Origin: an uncultured Bacteroidales bacterium
Lineage (GTDB): Bacteria; Bacteroidota; Bacteroidia; Bacteroidales; VadinHA17
DNA: 64,000 nucleotides
NCBI GenBank assembly: GCA_963849615.1
Contig: CAWKIC010000010.1
Span: 13,396-77,395 of the forward strand
Direction of reading: 5' to 3'
Shown: positions 1,692 through 59,238 of the stretch, piece by piece
Layout of the letters: the number at the start of each line of letters is the position of its first letter
How positions within the stretch are numbered: the first letter of the stretch is position 1
The notes under the pieces: generated by a model
What the model was told of the DNA's origin: nothing
The model's input: only the letters and a program-made list of their open reading frames with translations
Database searches by the model: none
Program-made: the position numbers and the translations under genes

Positions 1692-1765
1692 CTCCCCAGG
1701 TAAGACTCGAACTTACGACCCACGGATTAACAGTCCGTTGCTCTAACCAACTGAGCTACTGAGGA
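1692..1765 (-). tRNA. tRNA-Asn (anticodon GTT)
   Basis: The reverse complement TCCTCAGTAGCTCAGTTGGTTAGAGCAACGGACTGTTAATCCGTGGGTCGTAAGTTCGAGTCTTACCTGGGGAG folds as a cloverleaf. Acceptor stem is TCCTCAG/CTGGGGA, D arm GCTC..GAGC, anticodon stem ACGGA/TCCGT with loop CTGTTAA, and T arm GTAAG-TTCGAGT-CTTAC. The discriminator is G, and CCA is not encoded in register. Confidence 0.9.
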
Positions 1766-8633: not shown

Positions 8634-8676
8634 GGTCCTTTGTGAACCTTTGTGAGAACCTTTGGGTCCTTAGTGG
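8634..8676. repeat. heptamer repeat (CTTTGTG / CTTAGTG family), partial
   Basis: The sequence ggtcctttgtgaacctttgtgagaacctttgggtccttagtgg uses the same heptamer vocabulary as the repeats at 34989, 35624, 50461, 51982 and 53597. Confidence 0.7.
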
Positions 8677-34988: not shown

Positions 34989-35156
34989 GGCTGTTGAAAA
35001 AGTTGATTTTTTGGACTTTTTCCCTTTGTGTTCCTTAGTGCTATACTTTGTGATCCTTTGTGGTATTAAATTATGTTTTACCACAAAGTACTCAAACCTG
35101 CCTACCGGCAGGCAGGGGTTATCACGAAGGTTCACAAAGGACTTTTTCAACAGCTC
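34989..35156. mobile_element. MITE-like palindromic element, copy A (~170 bp)
   Basis: Terminal inverted repeats are ggctgttgaaaaagt and actttttcaacagc. Internal features are heptamer arms (ctttgtg/cttagtg vs cacaaag) and the inner palindrome cctgcctaccggcaggcagg. It is about 95% identical to 50461-50630. Confidence 0.75.
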
Positions 35157-45417: not shown

Positions 45418-46910
45418 ATGACTGAACCCATGAAAGTAGTAATCATAGGAGCCGGTATCGGAGGAATAACCACTGCAGTTTACCTTGCTAAAAACGGATA
45501 TTCTGTTAATGTATATGAAAAGAATTCTGAGCCTGGTGGCCGGTGCAGCCGGCTGATCCGGAACGGGCACAGGTTTGACCTGGGTGCAACAATGCTCCTG
45601 ATGCCCGGAATATATCAGGAGGTTTTTAGCTCTCTTGGCATCAGCCTTGAGCCAAACCGCGATATAATCTCTCTTGAAAACCTTTATAAAATATATTTCG
45701 ATGATGGCAGCAGCCTGGCATTTACTTCCGATAAAGATAAAATGGCAATGCAGCTTGAAAGGATCGAGACCGGGAGTTCTGAGAAATCCCGGGACTATGT
45801 CAGAAAAGGTTACACGATTTTCAAACTGGCCATGGACAGACTTATCGGCAGGAATTTTTATAATATCTTCCAGATGATAAATCTGAAGAACATTCCTCTG
45901 TTGTTTAAAATCAAGGCCTTTACACCCCATTTTAAATATGCCACGAGGTTTTTTAAGCACCCTCACCTTCTTATGGCGTACACCTTCCAGAATATTTACG
46001 TTGGACAAAGTCCGTTCAACTCTCCGGCATTGTTCTCGATGGTGCCTGCGGCAGAATTGACTGAAGGTTCATATTTCCCTGCCTCGGGGGTATGTTCTGC
46101 ATTGTTGAAAAACTGATTAAAGCAGCTGTTGAGAATGGCGTTAAGTTCTACTATGACAGTCCGGTAAAAAAGATAGTGGTAAAAGGAAAAAGAACAGAAG
46201 GAATTATCCTTGGCAACAATACTGAAATAAGTGCAGATCTGTTGATCGCGAATGCTGATCTCCCCTATGTTTACCGTGAATTGCTGCCCGGCAGACGGGC
46301 CTCATCACGTCTTGAAAAACTTAAATATTCCTGTTCTGCAATTTGTTTTCACTGGGGCCTTGATAAAATTTACCCCCAGCTAGGTAACCATAGTGTCATC
46401 TTATCCGACGGTTTCAAGGCCGGTCTGGACAGAATTTTCAGGGAAAAGTCTGTAAGCGACACCCCGAGTTTTTATGTGCATGCTCCGGCAAGAACGGATC
46501 CCACCTCAGCACCTCCGGGTCATGACACTCTTTCCGTAGTTGTTGCAGCCGGCCATCTCGACAGGAAATTCAGGCAGGATTGGGAGGGAACGAGGGCAAG
46601 AACCAGGGTATCAGTTATAAAGCGGCTCAGGGAGCTTGGCCTCGAAGACTTTGATGATCATATTAAGTTCGAGATCTGCTATTCGCCTGAAGACTGGGAG
46701 AAAGCATGCAATATTTCAAGAGGTTCCGTCTTCGGTAGCCTTGCCCATAATATTTTTCAGATGGGTTATTTTCGTCCGCATAACAGGCATAATAAATACA
46801 AAAACCTTTATTTTGTAGGTGGAAGCACTCATCCCGGGAACGGAATTCCAAATGTCCTGATCTCCGCAAAGCTGGTATCCGAAAGGATATTGAAAGAAAA
46901 CAAGATTTAA
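45418..46910 (+). CDS. crtI: phytoene desaturase (one frame disruption near 46085)
   Basis: VVIIGAGIGGITTA..YEKN.EPGGR is followed by ..GGM..IVEKL.. in the next frame. The C-terminus has FVGGSTHPGNGIP. Confidence 0.8.
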
Positions 46911-46928
46911 TTATAACCTGACTTTTAA

Positions 46929-47843
46929 GTGTTAATAAACTCACAAAGGGAACAATTCATTAAGATATTCAACTCGATTGATTTCAATAAGATAATCGAT
47001 CATCCCAATATTCTCATTGCTGCCAATTTCTGGGAAGAGGACAGGTATTGTGCTGCCAGGACATGCTATAATTTCATGAGGACAATTGACGATATGATTG
47101 ATAATCATAAAGCCAACAAGAGGTTTATAGCATCAGAGGAAAGAGCTGGATTGGTCAGGGATGTCAACGACTGGCTTAAAATGATTATCGTAACCAACAA
47201 TTGCGGGCCGGAACATTCAGATATTGTCAAAATCATTCAAAAATTCAGGATCCCTGTCTGGCCAATTGAAGAATTTGCAAAATCGATGATCTACGACATC
47301 AATAATGAAGGATTTCCGACTCTTGAAGCATTTCTTAAATATTCCAGAGGCGCTTCGGTAGCACCGGCTTCAATTTTTGTACACCTGAGCGGTTTGACAA
47401 GAAAAAACGGTGACTATATTGAACCTTCATTTGATGTACGGGAAGCTGCCGTCCCATGTGCGATTTTCAGTTACCTTGTCCATATAATCCGTGATTTTCA
47501 GAAGGATCAGTTCAATAACCTGAACTATTTCGCTGATGACCTGGCAACAAAATACGGCCTGACGAGAAGGGATTTAAGCGACATCGCTCATGGAAGCCCT
47601 GTAACTGCCGGCTTTCGTTCAATGATAAAGGAATACTATGATCTTGCCGATGAATACCGGATCAAAACCCGTGACATAATTGGTAAGATAAGGCCGTTGA
47701 TGGATCCGCGATACCAGTTGAGCCTTGAGATCATTTTTGATCTTTATCTTCTGGTCTTCGAAAGAATTAATGTCGAAAAGGGCAGCTTTACGTCCTTCGA
47801 GCTTAACCCGCGGCCTGAAGAAACACGTGAAAGAGTATTATGA
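46929..47843 (+). CDS. crtB: phytoene/squalene synthase-family protein
   Basis: 304 aa with a GTG start. Asp-rich motifs are MRTIDDMID and an IIRDFQKD region. It lies immediately downstream of crtI. Confidence 0.75.
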   Translation: MLINSQREQFIKIFNSIDFNKIIDHPNILIAANFWEEDRYCAARTCYNFMRTIDDMIDNHKANKRFIASEERAGLVRDVNDWLKMIIVTNNCGPEHSDIVKIIQKFRIPVWPIEEFAKSMIYDINNEGFPTLEAFLKYSRGASVAPASIFVHLSGLTRKNGDYIEPSFDVREAAVPCAIFSYLVHIIRDFQKDQFNNLNYFADDLATKYGLTRRDLSDIAHGSPVTAGFRSMIKEYYDLADEYRIKTRDIIGKIRPLMDPRYQLSLEIIFDLYLLVFERINVEKGSFTSFELNPRPEETRERVL

Positions 47844-47953: not shown

Positions 47954-48650
47954 ATGATTAACAAATTAAGTCTGATACTATTCTTATCCACTTTTTCAGC
48001 AATTTCGTTTGCCCAGATGGCAGGCACGGAAAATACCGATAAAAATATCTCCTTCACAAGCCTTAAAAACACTGATATCGGGAAGCTGACTAAAACCGGA
48101 TCATCGAGGATTAATAACAATGAGCTGGAGATCGTTGCCGGGGGCTCCGACATCTGGGGAAAACATGATGAGTTTCATTTCAGTTACAAAAAATTAAAGG
48201 GTGATTTTGAAATGAGTGTTCAGATAATGAGCCTCAGCAAAGCCCATTTGTACACAAAAGCCGGGATCATGGCACGAACCGGCCTGAGCGATAGCAGTCA
48301 GCATGTTTTTTTCCAGGTTTTTCCGGACAATAGTCCGCGGAATAATAACAACGGGGGTTGTGAATTCCAATATCGGAACAGTGCCAGGAGCTGAAATGAA
48401 GGCGATCTACCCTGACCTGAAAACGGCAGGTAACAGGTTTGATGTTGATTTCCCCAATACATGGATCCGGCTTAAGCGCCAGGGAGATGTTTTTGAATCA
48501 TACATTAGCAATGATAATAAAGCCTGGAGCCTCTATTCTTCATTTACCCTTATAATGCCACAAAAATTGCTTGTTGGACTGGCAGTCACGGCACACAATT
48601 CAAACGACCAAACAAAATCAGAGTTTGGAGCGATCCGGTTGAAAAAGTAG
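47954..48650 (+). CDS. secreted ConA-like lectin/glucanase-fold protein (DUF1349-like) (one frame disruption near 48380)
   Basis: There is a signal peptide. GGSDIWGKHDEFHFSYKKLKGDF..KAGIMAR pattern is present. The C-terminal half continues in ORF 48303-48650. Confidence 0.5.
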
Positions 48651-48909
48651 TGGCTTCAGTTCCTTTCCGGGGTCTTCCATATCTTCAAAGTATCTTTTAA
48701 TCCCGGCTCCGGCATTAAAATGATCAGATTCCCCGAGTGATTTAAATGCCAGTTATCCTGCAATTATAGAAACTCTGTTGATATAAGGCGGAATATAAAC
48801 CTGGAAGTTTTAGTAAATTGAAATATCAATTACTTCGGCCCGTTTTAAAAATGTGGCATAAGTTTTGTCATTGATTGGTTGTAACAATGTTCTTCTAATA
48901 ACAAACGTC

Positions 48910-50395
48910 ATGAAAAAGTTCTTAATCACCTCGATTCTCGCAACACTGGTTGCAGCCGGGACCACAATTATGGCTCAGGAGTATCCGGATGAATATCTGG
49001 GTTTGCCTGGAGATAACCTTAACCTTTACGCCGTAATGAAGTTGTTCCAGGAATCAGAAACCATCGAAGGTTTTGAAAGAAGCCTGAACGATGAAAATTC
49101 ACGGATAAACAACCTCGATCTTAACGGCGACAATTACATTGATTACCTCAAGGTAATCGATTACGTCGATGGCGATGTCCATACCATAGTTCTGCAGGCA
49201 GTCCTTGACCGGAACGAAACCCAGGATGCTGCTGTCTTTACAGTCCAGCGGTTACGCGACGGATCAGTACAGATACAGCTCACAGGTGATGAGGCTTTGT
49301 ACGGCAGAAATTACATCATCGAACCTATATTGACCAGACGCCGAATCCCGGCTACCTCGGAAGGCAAAACGCAAACGTTGTCAGGACCACAACAATTCAA
49401 ATTGCGTCCTGGCCGCTGGTACGATACATTTATATGCCTGAATCTACGACGTATGGCGCTCGTCGTGGTACTGGGGGCTACTACCCGTCATATCTGGCAC
49501 CCCGGCGTCCATTCTACTGGCATTACTACTACGGTTATCACTATCACTGGTATCCGAGATGACAGTCATTACCGTCACTGGGACAACGACCGGTATTTAC
49601 GCTGGAACGATTTTTACTACAACGGCACAAAAGTTATTCAACAACGTCAGCATAAGGATTAACTCAGGTAATTACAGGACAACCTATTCACATCCTGAGT
49701 ACCGGAGGGATGGGGAAGCCCTCTATACGAAGGTACATCCTGACAGGGGCACCAGGTCATCAACAGTATCCTCAGGAAATGATAACGGCAGGAGATCCGC
49801 TACACAGTCAACGACCTCCGGACGGTCAACAGGAACCTCAGCCGGATCAAGGAGATCAACTTCCTCCGTAACGAACAGATCCGATGGGGCCAGGTCATCA
49901 GCCCAGTCTTCAGGAACTTCAAGAAGGTCGACCTCCACGGTTACCAACAGATCTGAATCCACGACATCCGGCGGTAGAACCACTGTCCGTCAGTCTTCCT
50001 CAACCGGGAATGACAGGGCAAGGACAAACACCCCTGCCGGACAAAGTACAAGTTCCACCAGAAGGTCGTCTTCTACTGCCTCTTCATCCGGCCAGAGCAC
50101 CAGCCCGAGCCGTCAGTCGTCTACTACAGTGAATGCTAGCGCAAGGACTAATTCCTCTGCCGGTCAGGTTGCCAGTTCTTCAAGGAGGTCATCTTCCTCC
50201 GGTTCAGAACAGTCAGTTTCAAGACCTGCCCCGAGTCAAAGGACTGAAAGTGCAAGATCATCAAAACCCTCAAGCTCCAGCGCGGGTACATCAGCACGCA
50301 GGAGCAGCAGCGGCAGCAGCAAGTCCTCAGGCGCTTCCAAGTCGACCAGCAAGTCTAAAGATTCAGAAGGCAAAAGCACTTCCCGCCGGAAATAA
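48910..50395 (+). pseudogene. secreted protein with Ser/Thr/Arg-rich low-complexity tail (at least 3 frame disruptions between 49320 and 49560)
   Basis: A signal peptide (MKKFLITSILATLVAAG) and a globular N-terminal domain are followed by a Y/W/H-rich segment in shifting frames. The last ~230 aa are an S/T/R-rich tail. Confidence 0.55.
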
Positions 50396-50460: not shown

Positions 50461-50630
50461 GGGTTGTTGAAAAAGTTGATTTTTTGGACTTTTTCCCTTT
50501 GCGTTCCTTAGTGTCATACTTTGCGATCCTTTGTGGTATTAAATTATGTTTAACCACAAAGTACTAAAACCTGCCTGCCGGCAGGCAGGGGTTATCACGA
50601 AGGTTCACAAAGGACTTTTTCAACAGCCCC
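50461..50630. mobile_element. MITE-like palindromic element, copy B (~170 bp)
   Basis: It is colinear with 34989-35156, with only scattered substitutions (e.g. ctttgcg vs ctttgtg). The terminal inverted repeats are the same. Confidence 0.75.
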
Positions 50631-50708: not shown

Positions 50709-51905
50709 TTAAAATGCAGTTATCACCCCCACATTCACTTTGCCATACGATGTCCCGGTAAACTGCTGTGTATATTCCCCGACCACCCTCATATTGCGCC
50801 TGAGAAGGTATCCTGCGTGCAGGGTTGCCGAAGAGTAATCGAGGGGATCATAATGGGATTCCACCCAGTTAAAAAGGCCTGTAAGATACCATTTGCTCAT
50901 ATCACCTTTTGGTGCATAGATGATTTCTGCAAAAGCCCCGGAAGTCACCACATCTTTTTCAACCTGGTAAGGAAATCCCAAAAGGATCACATCTGAATCA
51001 GTCCTTCTTACATACTGTGCATTAATAATGAATTTTTCATTAAAGTCGATTGTAAGATCCGGTCCGAACATTTTTATCTCGCTAACAAGCAAAACCAGGG
51101 GGTCACGAACAACCTCCTTCCCAGTATACCCGAACACCCCTATGGAAAGGTATTTACCGATTGACTGGTTAATCCTGAGCATGAAGTTTTTATACTTGTC
51201 CTTATCGAACAGGAACCCTTCCCCGGCCTCACCGATGCCGTTTCCGTTCAATATTTCTCCGACCAGTGTAGTACCAGTTTTGAAACTCCTGTCAAAGATA
51301 ATGCCCCTGTCATATTTCAGGTCAGCGCTTGATGAGCCTGGTCTGGACTCGTATATCCTGTAAGGTTCAAGAGTATACCGCAACTCTCCCTTGAATAAAG
51401 GATCAGATACCTGGAACTGTCCGGCAAACAGGTTAATCCCCGATCCGAGAAAATCGTGGTACATGACAAAAGCATCTTCCAGCCCGGCGACTGATCCTCT
51501 TTCATTGAAAAGAAAATAAAAATAATATGATAATTTGTCCGAGAGCTCACCCCCTGAAAGTATCTTCACAACAAACGGGGCGGCAAAATCTGTCGTTCCT
51601 TCATTACCGAAATTATAAGAAGCAAAACCATCCATCCTGATTGCAAGCGGAAGTTCCCTGAAAAGGGAAAGTTTGTCGTCGCCTGTCTGGATAAAATATC
51701 TTGGTGATTCATATTCAGTCAGCCTGAAACCATTCCCGGCAAAAGTGTCGCCAAAGGGCTTAAGCCTTGGTATTGCCGGAGAATGGCATACCTGGCAGCT
51801 TATCTGGTATTTCCTCGCAAAGGCAGGAATCGAATATAGATTATCTGAAACCAAAATGGAAATAATTGCAAAAAAAACAATCTTCAGAGTGACTTGTCTT
51901 TTCAT
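50709..51905 (-). CDS. outer-membrane beta-barrel protein with N-terminal CxxCH heme-binding motif
   Basis: Intact 398 aa. A signal peptide ending AFA is followed by RKYQISCQVCHSPAIPRLKPFGDTF. The remainder shows an alternating amphipathic strand pattern, and the C-terminal residue is Phe (..GVITAF), as in OM barrels. Confidence 0.7.
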   Translation of the reverse strand: MKRQVTLKIVFFAIISILVSDNLYSIPAFARKYQISCQVCHSPAIPRLKPFGDTFAGNGFRLTEYESPRYFIQTGDDKLSLFRELPLAIRMDGFASYNFGNEGTTDFAAPFVVKILSGGELSDKLSYYFYFLFNERGSVAGLEDAFVMYHDFLGSGINLFAGQFQVSDPLFKGELRYTLEPYRIYESRPGSSSADLKYDRGIIFDRSFKTGTTLVGEILNGNGIGEAGEGFLFDKDKYKNFMLRINQSIGKYLSIGVFGYTGKEVVRDPLVLLVSEIKMFGPDLTIDFNEKFIINAQYVRRTDSDVILLGFPYQVEKDVVTSGAFAEIIYAPKGDMSKWYLTGLFNWVESHYDPLDYSSATLHAGYLLRRNMRVVGEYTQQFTGTSYGKVNVGVITAF

Positions 51906-51981
51906 TGTGATGTATTATGATGGTTTTTATATTCAGTCTGATCCTTTCAGGGGCTGGATAAAAGGTTTCTTTTAAAGTTCT

Positions 51982-52090
51982 TACCCTTTGATAACCTTTG
52001 TGTTAACCTTTGTGACCTTTGTGGTATAAATTTATTTTTTACCACAAAGGACTCTAAGGTTCTCACTAAGGTACACTAAGGACTTTTTGA
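51982..52090. repeat. heptamer palindrome repeat between cytochrome and barrel genes
   Basis: ccctttgataacctttgtgttaacctttgtgacctttgtggta - AT loop - taccacaaaggactctaaggttctcactaaggtacactaagg. Confidence 0.75.
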
Positions 52091-52109
52091 TCTATCATAT
52101 ACCGAAATA

Positions 52110-53492
52110 CTAAGGCAAAATATTGACTTTTGTTGAATGTTCATTGACCATCAGTATTTGAGACTCTTCAGCCGGAACTTTAAGCAGATCTGCTACCGGT
52201 TTAACGAGAAGCTGATAGTTAAGCACTGCCCTTACCTTCATTTCACCGGGTGCAACATCAAAAGGCAACCTGAAAGTGAATTTTTCAACTTTGGCTTCCC
52301 TTGGTCCAATACGATAATCTGTTCCAAGTTTTGCAGTGTTCCATTGCATGATCGTCATTCTTCCTTCCGGATCGAAATAAGCCATCCTGAAGATCCTGTT
52401 TCCGGCTGGTATACCATCCCGTAAAACCCCCTTAAAATCCGGCTGTCCAAGAGGTACGCCCAGATCCTGGTACGCCAGATCATTGCCTGAAATTGTATAT
52501 TCTTCTCCCTCAAAACCTTTCTTATCAACATTTATATGATATATCTTCCCCTTTGCATCGGTGGCTTCAACCTGTAACCATACTATCCGGTCCTCCACTG
52601 ATCCTGTTGGGAATTTATGACCCGTTTTCTGGTTGAACAAAGCAACGTTAAAAACTATTATTTCTCCCGGTTCCGCCTCCCTGATATCGGGTTCAATCCT
52701 CAGTTCAATGGTCCCCCGTACTTTTCCGGGATCGTGGGCTCCATGGAAAAGATGAAGCCTCGCATCATCATACGGTTTTGTCATCAGGGCATTCAGAAAA
52801 GGTCCACCTTTCGGCATGTGGCAATCCTGGCAGCGCACTCCCTCCTTTGAATAGGGCCCCTCCTTCCATTCCAGCTGCGTACTTTTAACCCAGATGCCGA
52901 AGGGATTCTTTTCATTGTGGCAGTTCCCGCAGAATTCGGTTGTGCGGAAGAAATCACTTGTTACGATCTTGTGAGCCGGCGATTCAACGGTAGGTGTCCG
53001 TCCTGCATATTTTGTCATCCCGGGCTTTATAAGGTAACTGTAGTTAAACGGCGGATCCGACTGTGCAGCTTGTACAAGGTGACAAACTTCACATGAAACC
53101 GATTCGTTTGCCATGCTTTTTGCATCAGGCCTCGGAGGCGGAAATTCCTTCCCACCCATAAAAGCAAGCGGTGTATGACACCCATTGCATCCGTCAACTG
53201 CATCTTTCAGTTCAGGTTTCGCAACTGAATGAGCAACTGCAAGGTCAAAATACTCAATTTCGTCCCAGTGATGTGTGTAGGCTTGCGACATCATTGCCTG
53301 TGACCACTGTTCATAGGTACCGGGGTGGCACGAACGGCATTTTTTAGATGATTCAAAATCTTTATAGGAATACTTGCTTTTCAGATCCTCCTGTGGCCCT
53401 CTTAAACTGTTGGTAAAAGCTGTAAGTAAGAATACGATTAGAGCGACCGGAATCAGAAGGAATAAAAGAGCAGAATAATTTCTTCTGTTCAT
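52110..53492 (-). CDS. pentaheme c-type cytochrome, membrane-anchored/secreted
   Basis: Intact 460 aa with an N-terminal hydrophobic anchor. Five CxxCH motifs are present (CRSCH, CNGCH, CEVCH, CGNCH, CQDCH) in the first ~230 aa, followed by a ~200-aa beta-rich C-terminal domain. Confidence 0.85.
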   Translation of the reverse strand: MNRRNYSALLFLLIPVALIVFLLTAFTNSLRGPQEDLKSKYSYKDFESSKKCRSCHPGTYEQWSQAMMSQAYTHHWDEIEYFDLAVAHSVAKPELKDAVDGCNGCHTPLAFMGGKEFPPPRPDAKSMANESVSCEVCHLVQAAQSDPPFNYSYLIKPGMTKYAGRTPTVESPAHKIVTSDFFRTTEFCGNCHNEKNPFGIWVKSTQLEWKEGPYSKEGVRCQDCHMPKGGPFLNALMTKPYDDARLHLFHGAHDPGKVRGTIELRIEPDIREAEPGEIIVFNVALFNQKTGHKFPTGSVEDRIVWLQVEATDAKGKIYHINVDKKGFEGEEYTISGNDLAYQDLGVPLGQPDFKGVLRDGIPAGNRIFRMAYFDPEGRMTIMQWNTAKLGTDYRIGPREAKVEKFTFRLPFDVAPGEMKVRAVLNYQLLVKPVADLLKVPAEESQILMVNEHSTKVNILP

Positions 53493-53596
53493 AGGGATCA
53501 GGGTTTTAATTTAATCTTAAATTTAAGAGATTTTTTATTATTATGTTAATAAATTAACATCAAATTATGCTGTAATATATAGTGCTAAATTTTTTT

Positions 53597-53640
53597 TACC
53601 ACTAAGGAACACAAAGGATATCACTAAGTAACACAAGGGG
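53597..53640. repeat. heptamer repeat (CACTAAG/CACAAAG), half-site
   Basis: taccactaaggaacacaaaggatatcactaagtaacacaagggg lies in the divergent region between the cytochrome and GH16 starts. Confidence 0.65.
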
Positions 53641-53645
53641 AAACC

Positions 53646-54339
53646 ATGAGATACATTACAAGTTCGATTGTACCGTCGCTAATCCTTTCCGTCAATCTGC
53701 TCGTTGCCCAGAAAAGTGATCCCTATATTCCGGATTTCAGCCAGCCTGCAACCATAGTCGGAATGAAGCTTGTCTGGAATGATGAGTTCAATGCTGAAGG
53801 GAAACCCGATCCTTCCTCATGGAGATATGAGAATGGATTTGTGAGGAACAATGAACTTCAATGGTACCAGGCAGCTAACGTCAACTGTAAAGGAGGGGTT
53901 CTTCTTATTGAAGGGAAACGGGAGTTGCTGAGGAACCCGGGGTATGTAGCAGGCAGTGCCAGCTGGCGGACGGCCAGGGAATATGCAGAATATACATCTG
54001 CAAGTATTCAAACCCGGGGATTCAGGGAGTGGCAGTTCGGCCGTTTCGAGATACGGGCCAGGATTGATACTGCAAAAGGTTCATGGCCTGCAATCTGGAC
54101 CCTTGGAATCTCCCATGGATGGCCTTCAGGCGGGGAGATTGATATTATGGAGTTCTACAGGGTTAAAGGAGTCCCAACGATCCTTGCAAATTTTGCCTGG
54201 GGAACCGAAAAACGGGGCGTGGCAAAATGGGATGACCTCAGAAAACCCCTTTCTGGGAGCAGCGGGAGGTGATCCCTCAAAATCGCCATCACCCATAAAA
54301 TATGAAGTAGACTGGGTAAGGATTTACCAGGAAGAGTGA
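53646..54339 (+). CDS. GH16-family beta-glucanase (laminarinase/licheninase-like) (one frame disruption near 54230)
   Basis: WNDEFN, GRFEIRARI, WPAIWTL and the catalytic block GGEIDIMEF are present. The C-terminus ..YEVDWVRIYQEE is in the next frame. Confidence 0.85.
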
Positions 54340-57028: not shown

Positions 57029-59238
57029 ATGAACAGAAAATATAATGCGGTTAAAGCTGTCCGGCTGCTTTCTTTTTTAGCGTTCCTTATTCCGCAGTGC
57101 CAAAATCAGGCTGTTAAATCTCCTCATGGACTGATGGTGGAATTTATCAGGGAGGCTGATCAGACAAAAATTCTCGATGCAAAACCTGAATTCAGCTGGA
57201 TAGTACCTGAAAAAGCGGTTTATCAGACAGCATATCAGGTACTTGTTTCCTCATCAAAAGGATCTTTAGCAAGAAGCGAAGCTGACGTCTGGGATAGCGG
57301 CAGAACTACCGGATCTTTGTCGTCTGAAGTTGAATTTGCAGGAGCAGGGCTTCCGGATAATTCTTCCTTCTTCTGGAAGGTCAGGATCTGGGATAAAAGG
57401 GGAAAGCCTTCTCCCTGGTCTGAAATTAAATCATTTAAAACAGGTTCTACTGGCAGCTATGCAACTTCCGGAAACAACTTCATGGAAACATTATCCAGGC
57501 CGGAAAAGCTGATAAAAACAGGGAAAAATCGCTTTTTCGCCGATTTTGGAAAGGATGCATTCGGTAAATTAATCCTTGAAATAACACCTGTTTCACATGA
57601 CACCCTTATCATCCACCTTGGGGAAAAAGCTAAGGGCACGAATGAAATTGACAGCAATCCGGGTGGTACGGTCAGGTACCAGAAAGTTCTTCTTCCAGTT
57701 GGTCCGGAACAGACAAAGTATACTGTGAATCTTCTCCGGGATGAAAGAAATACAGGTCCTGCAGCAATTCAGCTCCCTGATTCATTTGGTATTATAACTC
57801 CGTTTCGTTACCGCCTTATCGAAAACTGCGACTGGAGTTAAAGCCTGAAATATTACCGCAAGGCATATTGGTATTACTTCTGACGATGAAATCTGAGTTC
57901 ATTTGAATCTTCCGATACAATACTCAACAGTATCTGGGAATTATGCAAATACAGCATGAAAGCTACTTCCTCGCAGGAATTTATGGTCGATGGTGACCGT
58001 GAACGATTCCATATGAGGTCGACGCTGATATATTAACCAGCTCGGCCATTACTGCACCGACAGGGTAGTATTCACTTGCGAGGCGTACAAATGAATACTT
58101 TATCTACGACCCCACCTGGGCCGATCTAAAAATGGGATTCTCATACAGAAATTCCGTCCGTTTTTCAATGATGTGATGTAGCAGGAATTTACGAGTCTGT
58201 CAGTAGTGTTTTACAGCGATACTTCAGCATAAGACTCTCATCATCCTTTCAAGGGAGGATGGCCTTATCAGTTCAACGGGCGTAACCGGAGAAGTTATGA
58301 AGGAACTGGGATTTTCAGATGCGAAGGAAAGGATAAGGGATATTATCGACTGGCCTCCTTCGCAGAAGGATACAGGGTGGAAGCTGGCAACGGCAGAAGG
58401 CGAACGGGACGGCTATGAGATGGTTGACGTAAATACTGTTGTTAATGCCTTTCATTACAAAAACCTTCTTTTGATGGCAGAACTGGCTGGATTACTCGGA
58501 AAAGATGCTGATTCAATATTCTACGGGCATCGCGCAGAAACAGTAAAATCAACTTTTAACAAGGTTTTCCTCGAAAAGAACAGTGGTTACTATGTTGACG
58601 GGGAAAATTCATCTCACTCATCGCTGCATGCGAACATGATGGCCCTGACATTTGGGCTGGTCCCGCAAGAAAATCAAAAAGCTGTTGTGGAATTTATTAA
58701 GTCGAGAGGCATGGCCTGCAGTGTTTATGGTGCACAATACCTGCTTGAAGGCCTTTACAAAGCCGGAGAAGCTGATTACGCATTCAGTCTGCTGACAGCA
58801 ATCCACGACAGGAGCTGGTGGAACATGATAAAATCAGGGACAACTATTACAATGGAAGCCTGGGACCTTAAGTACAAGCCCAACTCAGACTGGAATCACG
58901 CCTGGGGAGCTGCTCCGGCAAATATAATCCCGACCTGTTTATGGGGAATTTCACCTGTCCGTCCCGGATTTGCAAAAGCGGTCATCAGGCCTCAGTTAAG
59001 TGGGCTTACTTACAGCAAAATACGGGTTCCAACAATTCGCGGGCAGATAGAAGCTGAGTTTAAAAATAAAGGAGGAAAAAGAGAATATCTTGTCAACATC
59101 CCTGCAAATATGGAATGCGATTTTGTTTTGAGCAGTGTTAATAATTTAACAATTTCAGTAAACGGTAAAAAGCTGAAAACAGAAACAGGGATAATAAAAT
59201 TAAAACCCGGAGCTAATACGATAGCTTTTCATCCGTAA
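57029..59238 (+). pseudogene. GH78-like alpha-L-rhamnosidase paralog, central segment heavily disrupted
   Basis: The N-terminal ORF (57029-57841: FSWIVPE..YQVLVSSS..FFWKVRIWD) and the C-terminal ORF (58297-59238, six-hairpin region) are intact. The 57841-58297 segment still reads SSDTILNSIWELCKYSMKAT..VDGDRER.. but with many shifts and stops. Confidence 0.75.

Follow-up and report, generated by a model that had tools for sequence, protein, structure and literature searches.

A Cyc2-type cytochrome-porin gene paired with a pentaheme cytochrome gene in uncultured Bacteroidales, a candidate electron conduit

The 64,000-nucleotide stretch of DNA analysed here (hereafter the window) comes from an uncultured Bacteroidales bacterium (GenBank assembly GCA_963849615.1, contig CAWKIC010000010.1, positions 13,396 to 77,395) and carries on its minus strand two adjacent genes, one for a 460-aa pentaheme cytochrome (52110..53492) and the other for a 398-aa protein with a predicted outer-membrane barrel (50709..51905). 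Motifs and predicted fold identify the second as a fused monoheme cytochrome-porin of the Cyc2 family and the first as a member of the PHC family, which includes T. tepidum c552 and ExtKL. From their conservation across genomes the two genes are read as a functional pair and a two-gene operon, and the module that they encode, a Cyc2-type outer-membrane redox protein with a dedicated pentaheme partner, is probably an electron conduit. An earlier note on this DNA had taken the two genes for a compact porin-cytochrome conduit of the MtrAB/Pcc type; the conserved pairing of c-type hemes with an outer-membrane barrel speaks for the conduit, and the MtrAB/Pcc part of the proposal did not hold.

The family of the barrel protein can be read from its N-terminal region. 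According to the definition of Keffer et al. 2021 (PMC8406198), a Cyc2 protein possesses a signal peptide, a single CXXCH and a PXL motif 4 residues past the CXXCH; the motif AXPXFAR[Q/K][T/Y] upstream of the heme site was described as unique to Cyc2, and the protein should further reach 365 aa or more and contain a 16-strand porin that resembles OprO/OprP in structure (PMC8406198). The window protein starts with MKRQVTLKIVFFAIISILVSDNLYS, read as a signal peptide, continues with IPAF...CQVCH, and has its own heme site immediately past the signal peptide (IPAFARKYQISCQVCHSPAIPRL; IPAFARKYQISCQVCHSPAIPRLKPFG). The complete motif, PAFARKY-QIS-CQVCH-SPAI-PRL, lies at 51762-51827 on the minus strand and includes the invariant heme site C37-H41 (51783-51797), the only CxxCH of the protein. 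It belongs to a cytochrome domain of residues 26-87 (51645..51830), followed by the 16-strand beta-barrel porin domain of residues 88-398 (50712..51644), which has an aromatic end (...ITAF). Residues 28-41 are invariant among 34 close homologs. PAFARKY stands 3 residues ahead of C37, a spacing shared with the Gallionellaceae-type relatives, and the leading A of AXPXFAR is an S in the window protein and an A in most homologs. The PRL is placed at +5 from the CXXCH (CH-SPAI-PRL) instead of the +4 of the published definition, due to a one-residue insertion common to the Bacteroidales clade, other relatives having CH-AAF-PRL. The window protein resembles Cyc2 of Acidithiobacillus ferrooxidans, Cyc2PV-1 of Mariprofundus and Cyt572 of Leptospirillum in its signal peptide, PXFAR[K]Y and single CXXCH, as well as in its length of ~400 aa, its 16-strand OprP-like porin and its aromatic end, and has its PXL one residue further from the heme site than they do. 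The barrel is classified as Cyc2-type because it agrees with the published description in motif, length, strand number and fold, the PXL offset being the sole deviation.

The predicted structure is in line with this classification. AlphaFold2 (AF2) models of both proteins were built from 34-sequence alignments of close homologs, and that of the Cyc2-like protein displays exactly 16 strands (DSSP), with a mean predicted local distance difference test score (pLDDT) of 57 and values of 74-86 across much of the C-terminal half of the barrel. The signal peptide, the outer-membrane strand pattern and the C-terminal Phe (...VITAF) given by the earlier note were thus recovered; the invariant CxxCH at C37-H41 had been overlooked. 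With the barrel model as query, the top Foldseek match was OprP (2o4v, E=2.8e-9), followed mainly by classical 16-strand trimeric porins. Searches of the 398-aa protein against the hidden Markov models of Pfam and NCBIfam gave no match and a sequence search of the PDB nothing meaningful, as expected for a family that has no curated model in those libraries; an exact look-up of the window's own barrel protein likewise gave no record. By profile search, the protein is linked to 1585 clusters at 50% identity. A single N-terminal CxxCH in the same place and motif context was present in the 42 full-length distant representatives read (42/42), nearly all of which also end with an aromatic residue. 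Among the distant representatives, P0337/P0418 (143 bits) is part of a close-knit group, ~65% identical among itself, that spans metagenome-assembled genomes (MAGs) of Gallionellaceae, Acidiferrobacterales, Chromatiales, Burkholderiales and Nitrospinota, a distribution across taxa like that reported for Cyc2 Cluster 1 (PMC8406198). Between the window protein and a Gallionellaceae MAG protein bearing the motif, identity reaches 36% over 288 residues (E=8e-49).

The partner protein is composed of an N-terminal signal sequence (residues 1-30, 53403..53492), which may be cleaved off as a signal peptide or retained as a membrane anchor, a five-heme domain (residues 45-257, 52722..53360) and a C-terminal beta-sandwich domain of immunoglobulin-like (Ig-like) type (residues 258-460, 52113..52721), all on the minus strand. 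Its CxxCH motifs, read from the sequence at 53325-53339, 53175-53189, 53079-53093, 52917-52931 and 52818-52832, correspond to C52, C102, C134, C188 and C221, and the protein has no other cysteine; the chance expectation of such motifs was estimated at ~0.001 per protein. All ten heme-motif cysteines are invariant in 34 homologs, and exactly five CxxCH were counted in 117 of 118 homologs. Beta strands are predicted across residues 262-458, some of them at pLDDT 80-95, and the Ig-like domain holds the loop NQKTGHKFPTGSVEDR (residues 287-302), invariant in the 34 homologs. Sequence and AF2 model therefore agree with the initial description of a 460-aa protein with a hydrophobic N-terminus, five CxxCH and a beta-rich domain of ~200 aa. 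The N-terminus is basic, then hydrophobic at residues 8-27, and the AF2 model has a helix across residues 2-30. Close homologs share some 20 hydrophobic residues with a conserved LTAF end and lack an AXA-type cleavage site, and the signal peptides of two distant homologs are of the usual sort, with AQ at their end. The N-terminus of the window protein looks like an uncleaved anchor, and the protein would be either periplasmic or anchored in the inner membrane.

More than 2600 homologs of the pentaheme protein were found, some of them annotated as NapC/NirT-like. Its Pfam matches are generic multiheme ones, that to NNT covering residues 183-239 only, and it matches weakly the MtrC/MtrF domain and the DmsE/MtrA family models. 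The best NCBIfam model is ExtKL (NF040886; E=1e-16, 60.5 bits for a cut-off of 250). Both by sequence and by fold, the best PDB match is 5ZE8, the pentaheme cytochrome c552 of Thermochromatium tepidum and the sole relative with a solved structure, with all five heme motifs in register, a profile E-value of 1.7e-7 at ~21% identity and the top Foldseek rank at E=1.9e-9 despite a poor model; the remaining Foldseek matches are Ig-like domains. The five CxxCH are likewise in register throughout the PHC family (5ZE8, Geobacter ExtKL/MccSep and the sPHC of cable bacteria), a family proposed for cable bacteria and Geobacter in which the MccSep/ExtKL structure consists of a cap and an Ig-like stem (PMC11976967; bioRxiv 10.1101/2025.11.18.688581). 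The window protein has the same general build, a helical heme cap and a C-terminal Ig-like beta-sandwich, and differs from its PHC relatives by the anchor-like N-terminus. Sequence and predicted fold assign it to the c552/ExtKL (PHC) family, and not to the MccSep-type enzymes.

This last point deserves consideration, as ExtKL/MccSep provides the best NCBIfam match, ExtKL is likewise encoded beside a porin gene (extI), and the authors of the MccSep study call the outer-membrane route for polysulfide unknown. The pentaheme protein could on these grounds be a MccSep-related reductase of a small sulfur or nitrogen compound, to which the porin would supply substrate or electrons. What defines the MccSep polysulfide reductase is, however, a Cys that ligates a heme, together with a catalytic Sec/Cys (selenocysteine or cysteine) (PMC11976967; bioRxiv 10.1101/2025.11.18.688581), and the window protein has neither (C239 and U325 in MccSep): cysteines outside the heme motifs are absent from 117 of the 118 homologs, no in-frame UGA occurs in the window gene, and the ExtKL score lies far under its cut-off. 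Nine extra invariant His are found in the 34 homologs, including H292 in the GHKFPTG loop, and could make all five hemes bis-His; together with the lack of extra Cys, they fit electron transfer rather than catalysis of the MccSep type. Other enzyme and cytochrome families were rejected as well: NrfA, whose models give ~14 bits (13.9 bits for a cut-off of 595) and whose CxxCK motif is missing, NrfH (27 bits for 134), NapC/NirT (9.9 bits for 311), TorC (14 bits for 478) and MccSep itself, on its missing residues and the 60.5 bits for 250. The cytochrome accordingly does not fall into a characterised enzyme family; membership of a well-characterised periplasmic one, with a barrel neighbour that is not conserved, was among the outcomes that the earlier note had considered fatal to its proposal. 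We regard a reductase as improbable. A distant pentaheme homolog (L084:3599-4957, 50% identity) reads NQKCGHKVPSG in place of NQKTGHKFPTG, with a Cys beside the conserved GH loop that speaks for the reductase explanation. The loop may be the counterpart of the one that holds the Sec/Cys in MccSep, in which case the cysteine would point to a passage from catalytic to electron-transfer forms or the reverse.

A relative of the barrel occurs in at least 576 species-representative genomes. The synteny counts out of 80 rest on the best 80 of them, all Bacteroidales MAGs taken at species level, to several of which the depositors gave the label Rikenellaceae. In 80/80 loci the pentaheme gene is the immediate upstream neighbour of the barrel gene, on the same strand, so the co-occurrence on which the initial proposal depended was found, with the barrel as a conserved neighbour. 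The gap between the two genes is mostly 15-180 bp, with a usual spacer of 20-60 bp, the few larger values being due to frameshifted or partial matches; it amounts to 204 bp in the window. A closed 4.57-Mb genome, reached through a pentaheme homolog, also has the pair, with 24 bp between the pentaheme gene and the Cyc2-like gene downstream of it. OW818650.1 and GCA_942492865.1 are examples of closed genomes with the pair. The pair is also kept in unrelated contexts at 62%/47% (L081) and 50%/42% (L084) identity. Clustering of all flanking open reading frames (ORFs) of the 80 loci revealed no third universally conserved gene, the next real families being present in at most 30 loci once antisense ORFs were excluded. 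In one of the unrelated contexts (L081:17-3402), genes for a sigma-54-dependent two-component system stand ahead of the pair, one encoding a histidine kinase and the other a response regulator that includes an AAA+ activator domain; the system is absent from the window and is possibly a dedicated regulator of the pair.

Known Cyc2 systems use the dihaem Cyc1 or Cyt579. The Cyc2 of the type found in the window is, unlike them, always paired with a pentaheme protein (80/80 loci), and its hosts are uncultured, apparently anaerobic Bacteroidales. The pentaheme is encoded beside an outer-membrane barrel gene as in ExtKL, whose partner is ExtI and not, as here, a Cyc2-type barrel with its own heme.

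A multiheme gene adjoining an outer-membrane barrel gene in a conserved arrangement is also what characterises conduits of the MtrAB/Pcc type, in which the multiheme cytochrome would be inserted in the barrel lumen and wire electrons to solid acceptors, and the weak MtrC/MtrF and DmsE/MtrA matches go in this direction. The module shares with MtrCAB, MtoAB, PioAB and Geobacter Pcc the combination of c-type hemes and an outer-membrane barrel, presumably for trans-outer-membrane electron transfer. Their barrels are, however, heme-free, have 20-26 strands and enclose a wire of 8-10 hemes, often with a surface lipoprotein cytochrome in addition, whereas the window has a 16-strand one-heme barrel, a globular pentaheme and no third component. 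More precisely, 16 strands are to be compared with 26 in MtrB (PMC8406198), the barrel bears the Cyc2 motif together with its heme, the cytochrome is made up of a globular cap plus an Ig-like domain of 200 aa, and in the 80 loci no gene for an extracellular cytochrome is conserved near the pair. The MtrA/DmsE model (TIGR03508), which stands for a periplasmic wire of ten (or 8-12) hemes as opposed to the five found here, was rejected with 20.8 bits for a cut-off of 192. A conduit with the cytochrome inside the barrel is, on this evidence, very improbable, and the analogy put forward by the earlier note gives way to a 16-strand heme-bearing OprP-like barrel facing a c552/ExtKL-type pentaheme that is not an MtrA-like wire.

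The two genes are genuine and unbroken, and purifying selection on them is strong. The ORF list confirms them on the minus strand at the positions first reported, and the dN/dS ratio (nonsynonymous to synonymous substitution rates) with respect to the nearest relative is 0.046 for the pentaheme gene and 0.085 for the Cyc2-like gene. In a comparison with a relative at ~90% nucleotide identity, the two cytochrome genes contain 0 frame-breaking indels, against 10 and 21 in the flanks, which bears out their description as an intact pair amid broken neighbours. The flank indels are single-base and clustered, and the broken neighbour frames could be due either to long-read assembly error or to real gene decay; selection was for this reason judged by dN/dS and synteny and not by the state of the flanks. 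The frameshift-split neighbours encode a DUF1349 protein (47954-48650), a 499-aa secreted protein (48865-50395), a glycoside hydrolase (GH) of family GH16 (53646-54339), a phytoene-desaturase-like protein (45418-46910) and a rhamnosidase (57029-59238), and most of them are intact as orthologs in the closest relative (locus L088).

On the reading that we prefer, that of a Cyc2-type conduit, the pentaheme most likely serves as the dedicated periplasmic-side partner of the outer-membrane heme. The single heme, located in or at the pore, would react with a redox substrate that is small and soluble, Fe2+/Fe3+ being the most likely one, electrons would move between this heme and the five hemes of the pentaheme, and the latter would then link them to the rest of the respiratory chain. 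The pair would thus act like Cyc2-Cyc1 of iron oxidisers, with the pentaheme replacing the dihaem Cyc1. The restriction to small soluble species follows from the position of a heme in a narrow 16-strand pore (reasoning from PMC8406198). We infer a physical interaction of the two proteins, as well as the substrate, the way in which electrons flow and a connection to the quinone pool. An inward flow, with oxidation of Fe(II), is slightly favoured, because it is the sole activity demonstrated for the Cyc2 family, the three members tested (A. ferrooxidans Cyc2, Leptospirillum Cyt572 and Cyc2PV-1) oxidising Fe(II) (PMC8406198); electron export to soluble acceptors would be nearly as likely.

With the same architecture and outward flow, menaquinone or periplasmic donors would feed the pentaheme, which would pass electrons to the Cyc2-like heme and on to soluble acceptors outside the cell, for instance small quinones or chelated Fe(III), providing fermenting Bacteroidales with an electron sink. 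The hosts seem anaerobic and saccharolytic, and the relatives of the pentaheme include a low-potential cytochrome and a reductase, both of which suit this direction. An uncleaved anchor, as the LTAF end suggests, would further put the pentaheme at the inner membrane in the manner of quinol dehydrogenases, and the NapC/NirT-like annotation of some members agrees with such a role; the NapC/NirT, NrfH and TorC models are nevertheless far from their cut-offs, and in distant homologs the signal peptides are of the usual cleavable sort. Fe(II) oxidation is the activity of all Cyc2 members tested to date (PMC8406198), and a plugged 16-strand pore would reach small soluble acceptors only. Taken as a distinct explanation, outward flow is a tentative possibility.

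Several observations weigh against the preferred conduit. The closest solved pentaheme relative, T. tepidum c552, is called low-potential in the title of the cited work, which would fit export better. The hosts look like anaerobic sugar degraders, given the glycoside hydrolases of the window and the [FeFe]-hydrogenase maturase gene HydF near the pair in relatives, and such organisms are an odd setting for iron oxidation. More distant Cyc2-like genes, with ~33-42% identity to the window barrel, are unpaired in Gemmatimonadales, in a gammaproteobacterial-type MAG and in other sources, and the pentaheme partner is therefore not a general requirement of the Cyc2 family. The heme domains of both proteins are modelled at an AF2 pLDDT below 50 (residues 30-260 in the pentaheme, residues 15-89 in the Cyc2-like protein). 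The Gallionellaceae protein that bridges the window protein to established Cyc2 is itself unannotated, and the authors of the family definition deem the roles of divergent Cyc2 homologs uncertain (PMC8406198).

A bolder version of the conduit would have the pair alone form a full envelope-spanning path, the uncleaved helix with its conserved LTAF anchoring the pentaheme in the inner membrane, where it would exchange electrons with menaquinone and still reach the Cyc2-like heme. We consider this doubtful. If true, six hemes in two proteins would constitute the smallest known Gram-negative route of extracellular electron transfer, a minimal route present in hundreds of uncultured anaerobic Bacteroidales species of sediments, soils and digesters, and one that light or oxygen stress might switch on together with the photolyase, CarH-like and carotenoid genes beside it.

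Both protein families were known; what is new is a Cyc2-type gene strictly coupled to one pentaheme gene. Metagenome surveys have occasionally, and in passing, assigned cyc2 genes to Bacteroidetes, and the literature searched, whose coverage was incomplete, contained no description of a Cyc2 and pentaheme operon or of its spread in Bacteroidales. The coupling concerns at least 80 Bacteroidales species, and probably hundreds, which are abundant degraders of organic matter in anoxic habitats. Cyc2 is a widely used marker of microbial iron oxidation, and has many homologs in organisms other than iron oxidisers. If the pair is an electron path, fermenters would directly join iron redox cycling or extracellular electron exchange, and metagenomic counts of "cyc2" would need to be re-read. 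The pair also offers the c552/ExtKL pentaheme family a defined and testable partner.

The 20 longest other ORFs of the window include no cytochrome-maturation or respiratory genes, in agreement with the earlier remark that no ccm, heme-lyase or respiratory genes are visible nearby, and no other window ORF has more than one heme motif. The window encodes GH16, GH78, GH92 and GH95 proteins together with a DegV/Dak2 protein, and also has carotenoid-type genes. In 54 of the 80 loci (L001-L080), at least one of three kinds of gene is found within 10 kb of the pair, namely those for a photolyase, for a MerR/B12-binding (CarH-like) regulator and for a phytoene synthase/desaturase, an association that spans two synteny types; the window itself has the carotenoid-type genes only (SQS_PSY and a split desaturase, 45418-47843). 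This proximity may reflect inherited gene order or a shared light/oxidative-stress regulon. Among the type B loci (L041-L075), HydF is found just downstream of the pair in 19 (+1 to +3 kb) and an aromatic amino acid ammonia-lyase gene just upstream in 20, neighbours that fit an anaerobic, pigment-making host. In 22 related loci, the gene directly downstream of the Cyc2-like gene, and convergent to it, encodes a conserved secreted protein of ~499 aa with a very long Ser/Thr/Arg-rich low-complexity tail and no Pfam match (48865-50395 in the window, where it is split; ortholog at L001:11501-13000).

The spacer between the two cytochrome genes is enlarged in the window lineage by a palindromic repeat (51985..52081, unstranded) with 46-nt arms that are 76% complementary and an RNA fold of -38.4 kcal/mol (z = -6.1). 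This dispersed repeat of ~100 nt is made of CCTTTGTG/CCTTAGTG octamers, with related copies at 50497-50620 and 53594-53643, and others at 8637-8654 and 35055-35089, so that repeats both flank the two cytochrome genes and stand between them. None of the 89 related loci contains the core hairpin motif of the repeat, CCTTTGTGGTA...TACCACAAAGG, and the repeat is on this account taken as lineage-specific; it looks like an element of the repetitive extragenic palindrome (REP) or miniature inverted-repeat transposable element (MITE) kind. About 120 bp past the stop codon of the Cyc2-like gene, a consensus scan retrieved a terminator-like GC hairpin followed by a T run (50570..50589, minus strand), which is likely the end of the transcription unit. 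A single tRNA gene (1692-1765, minus strand) is the only Rfam match in the window.

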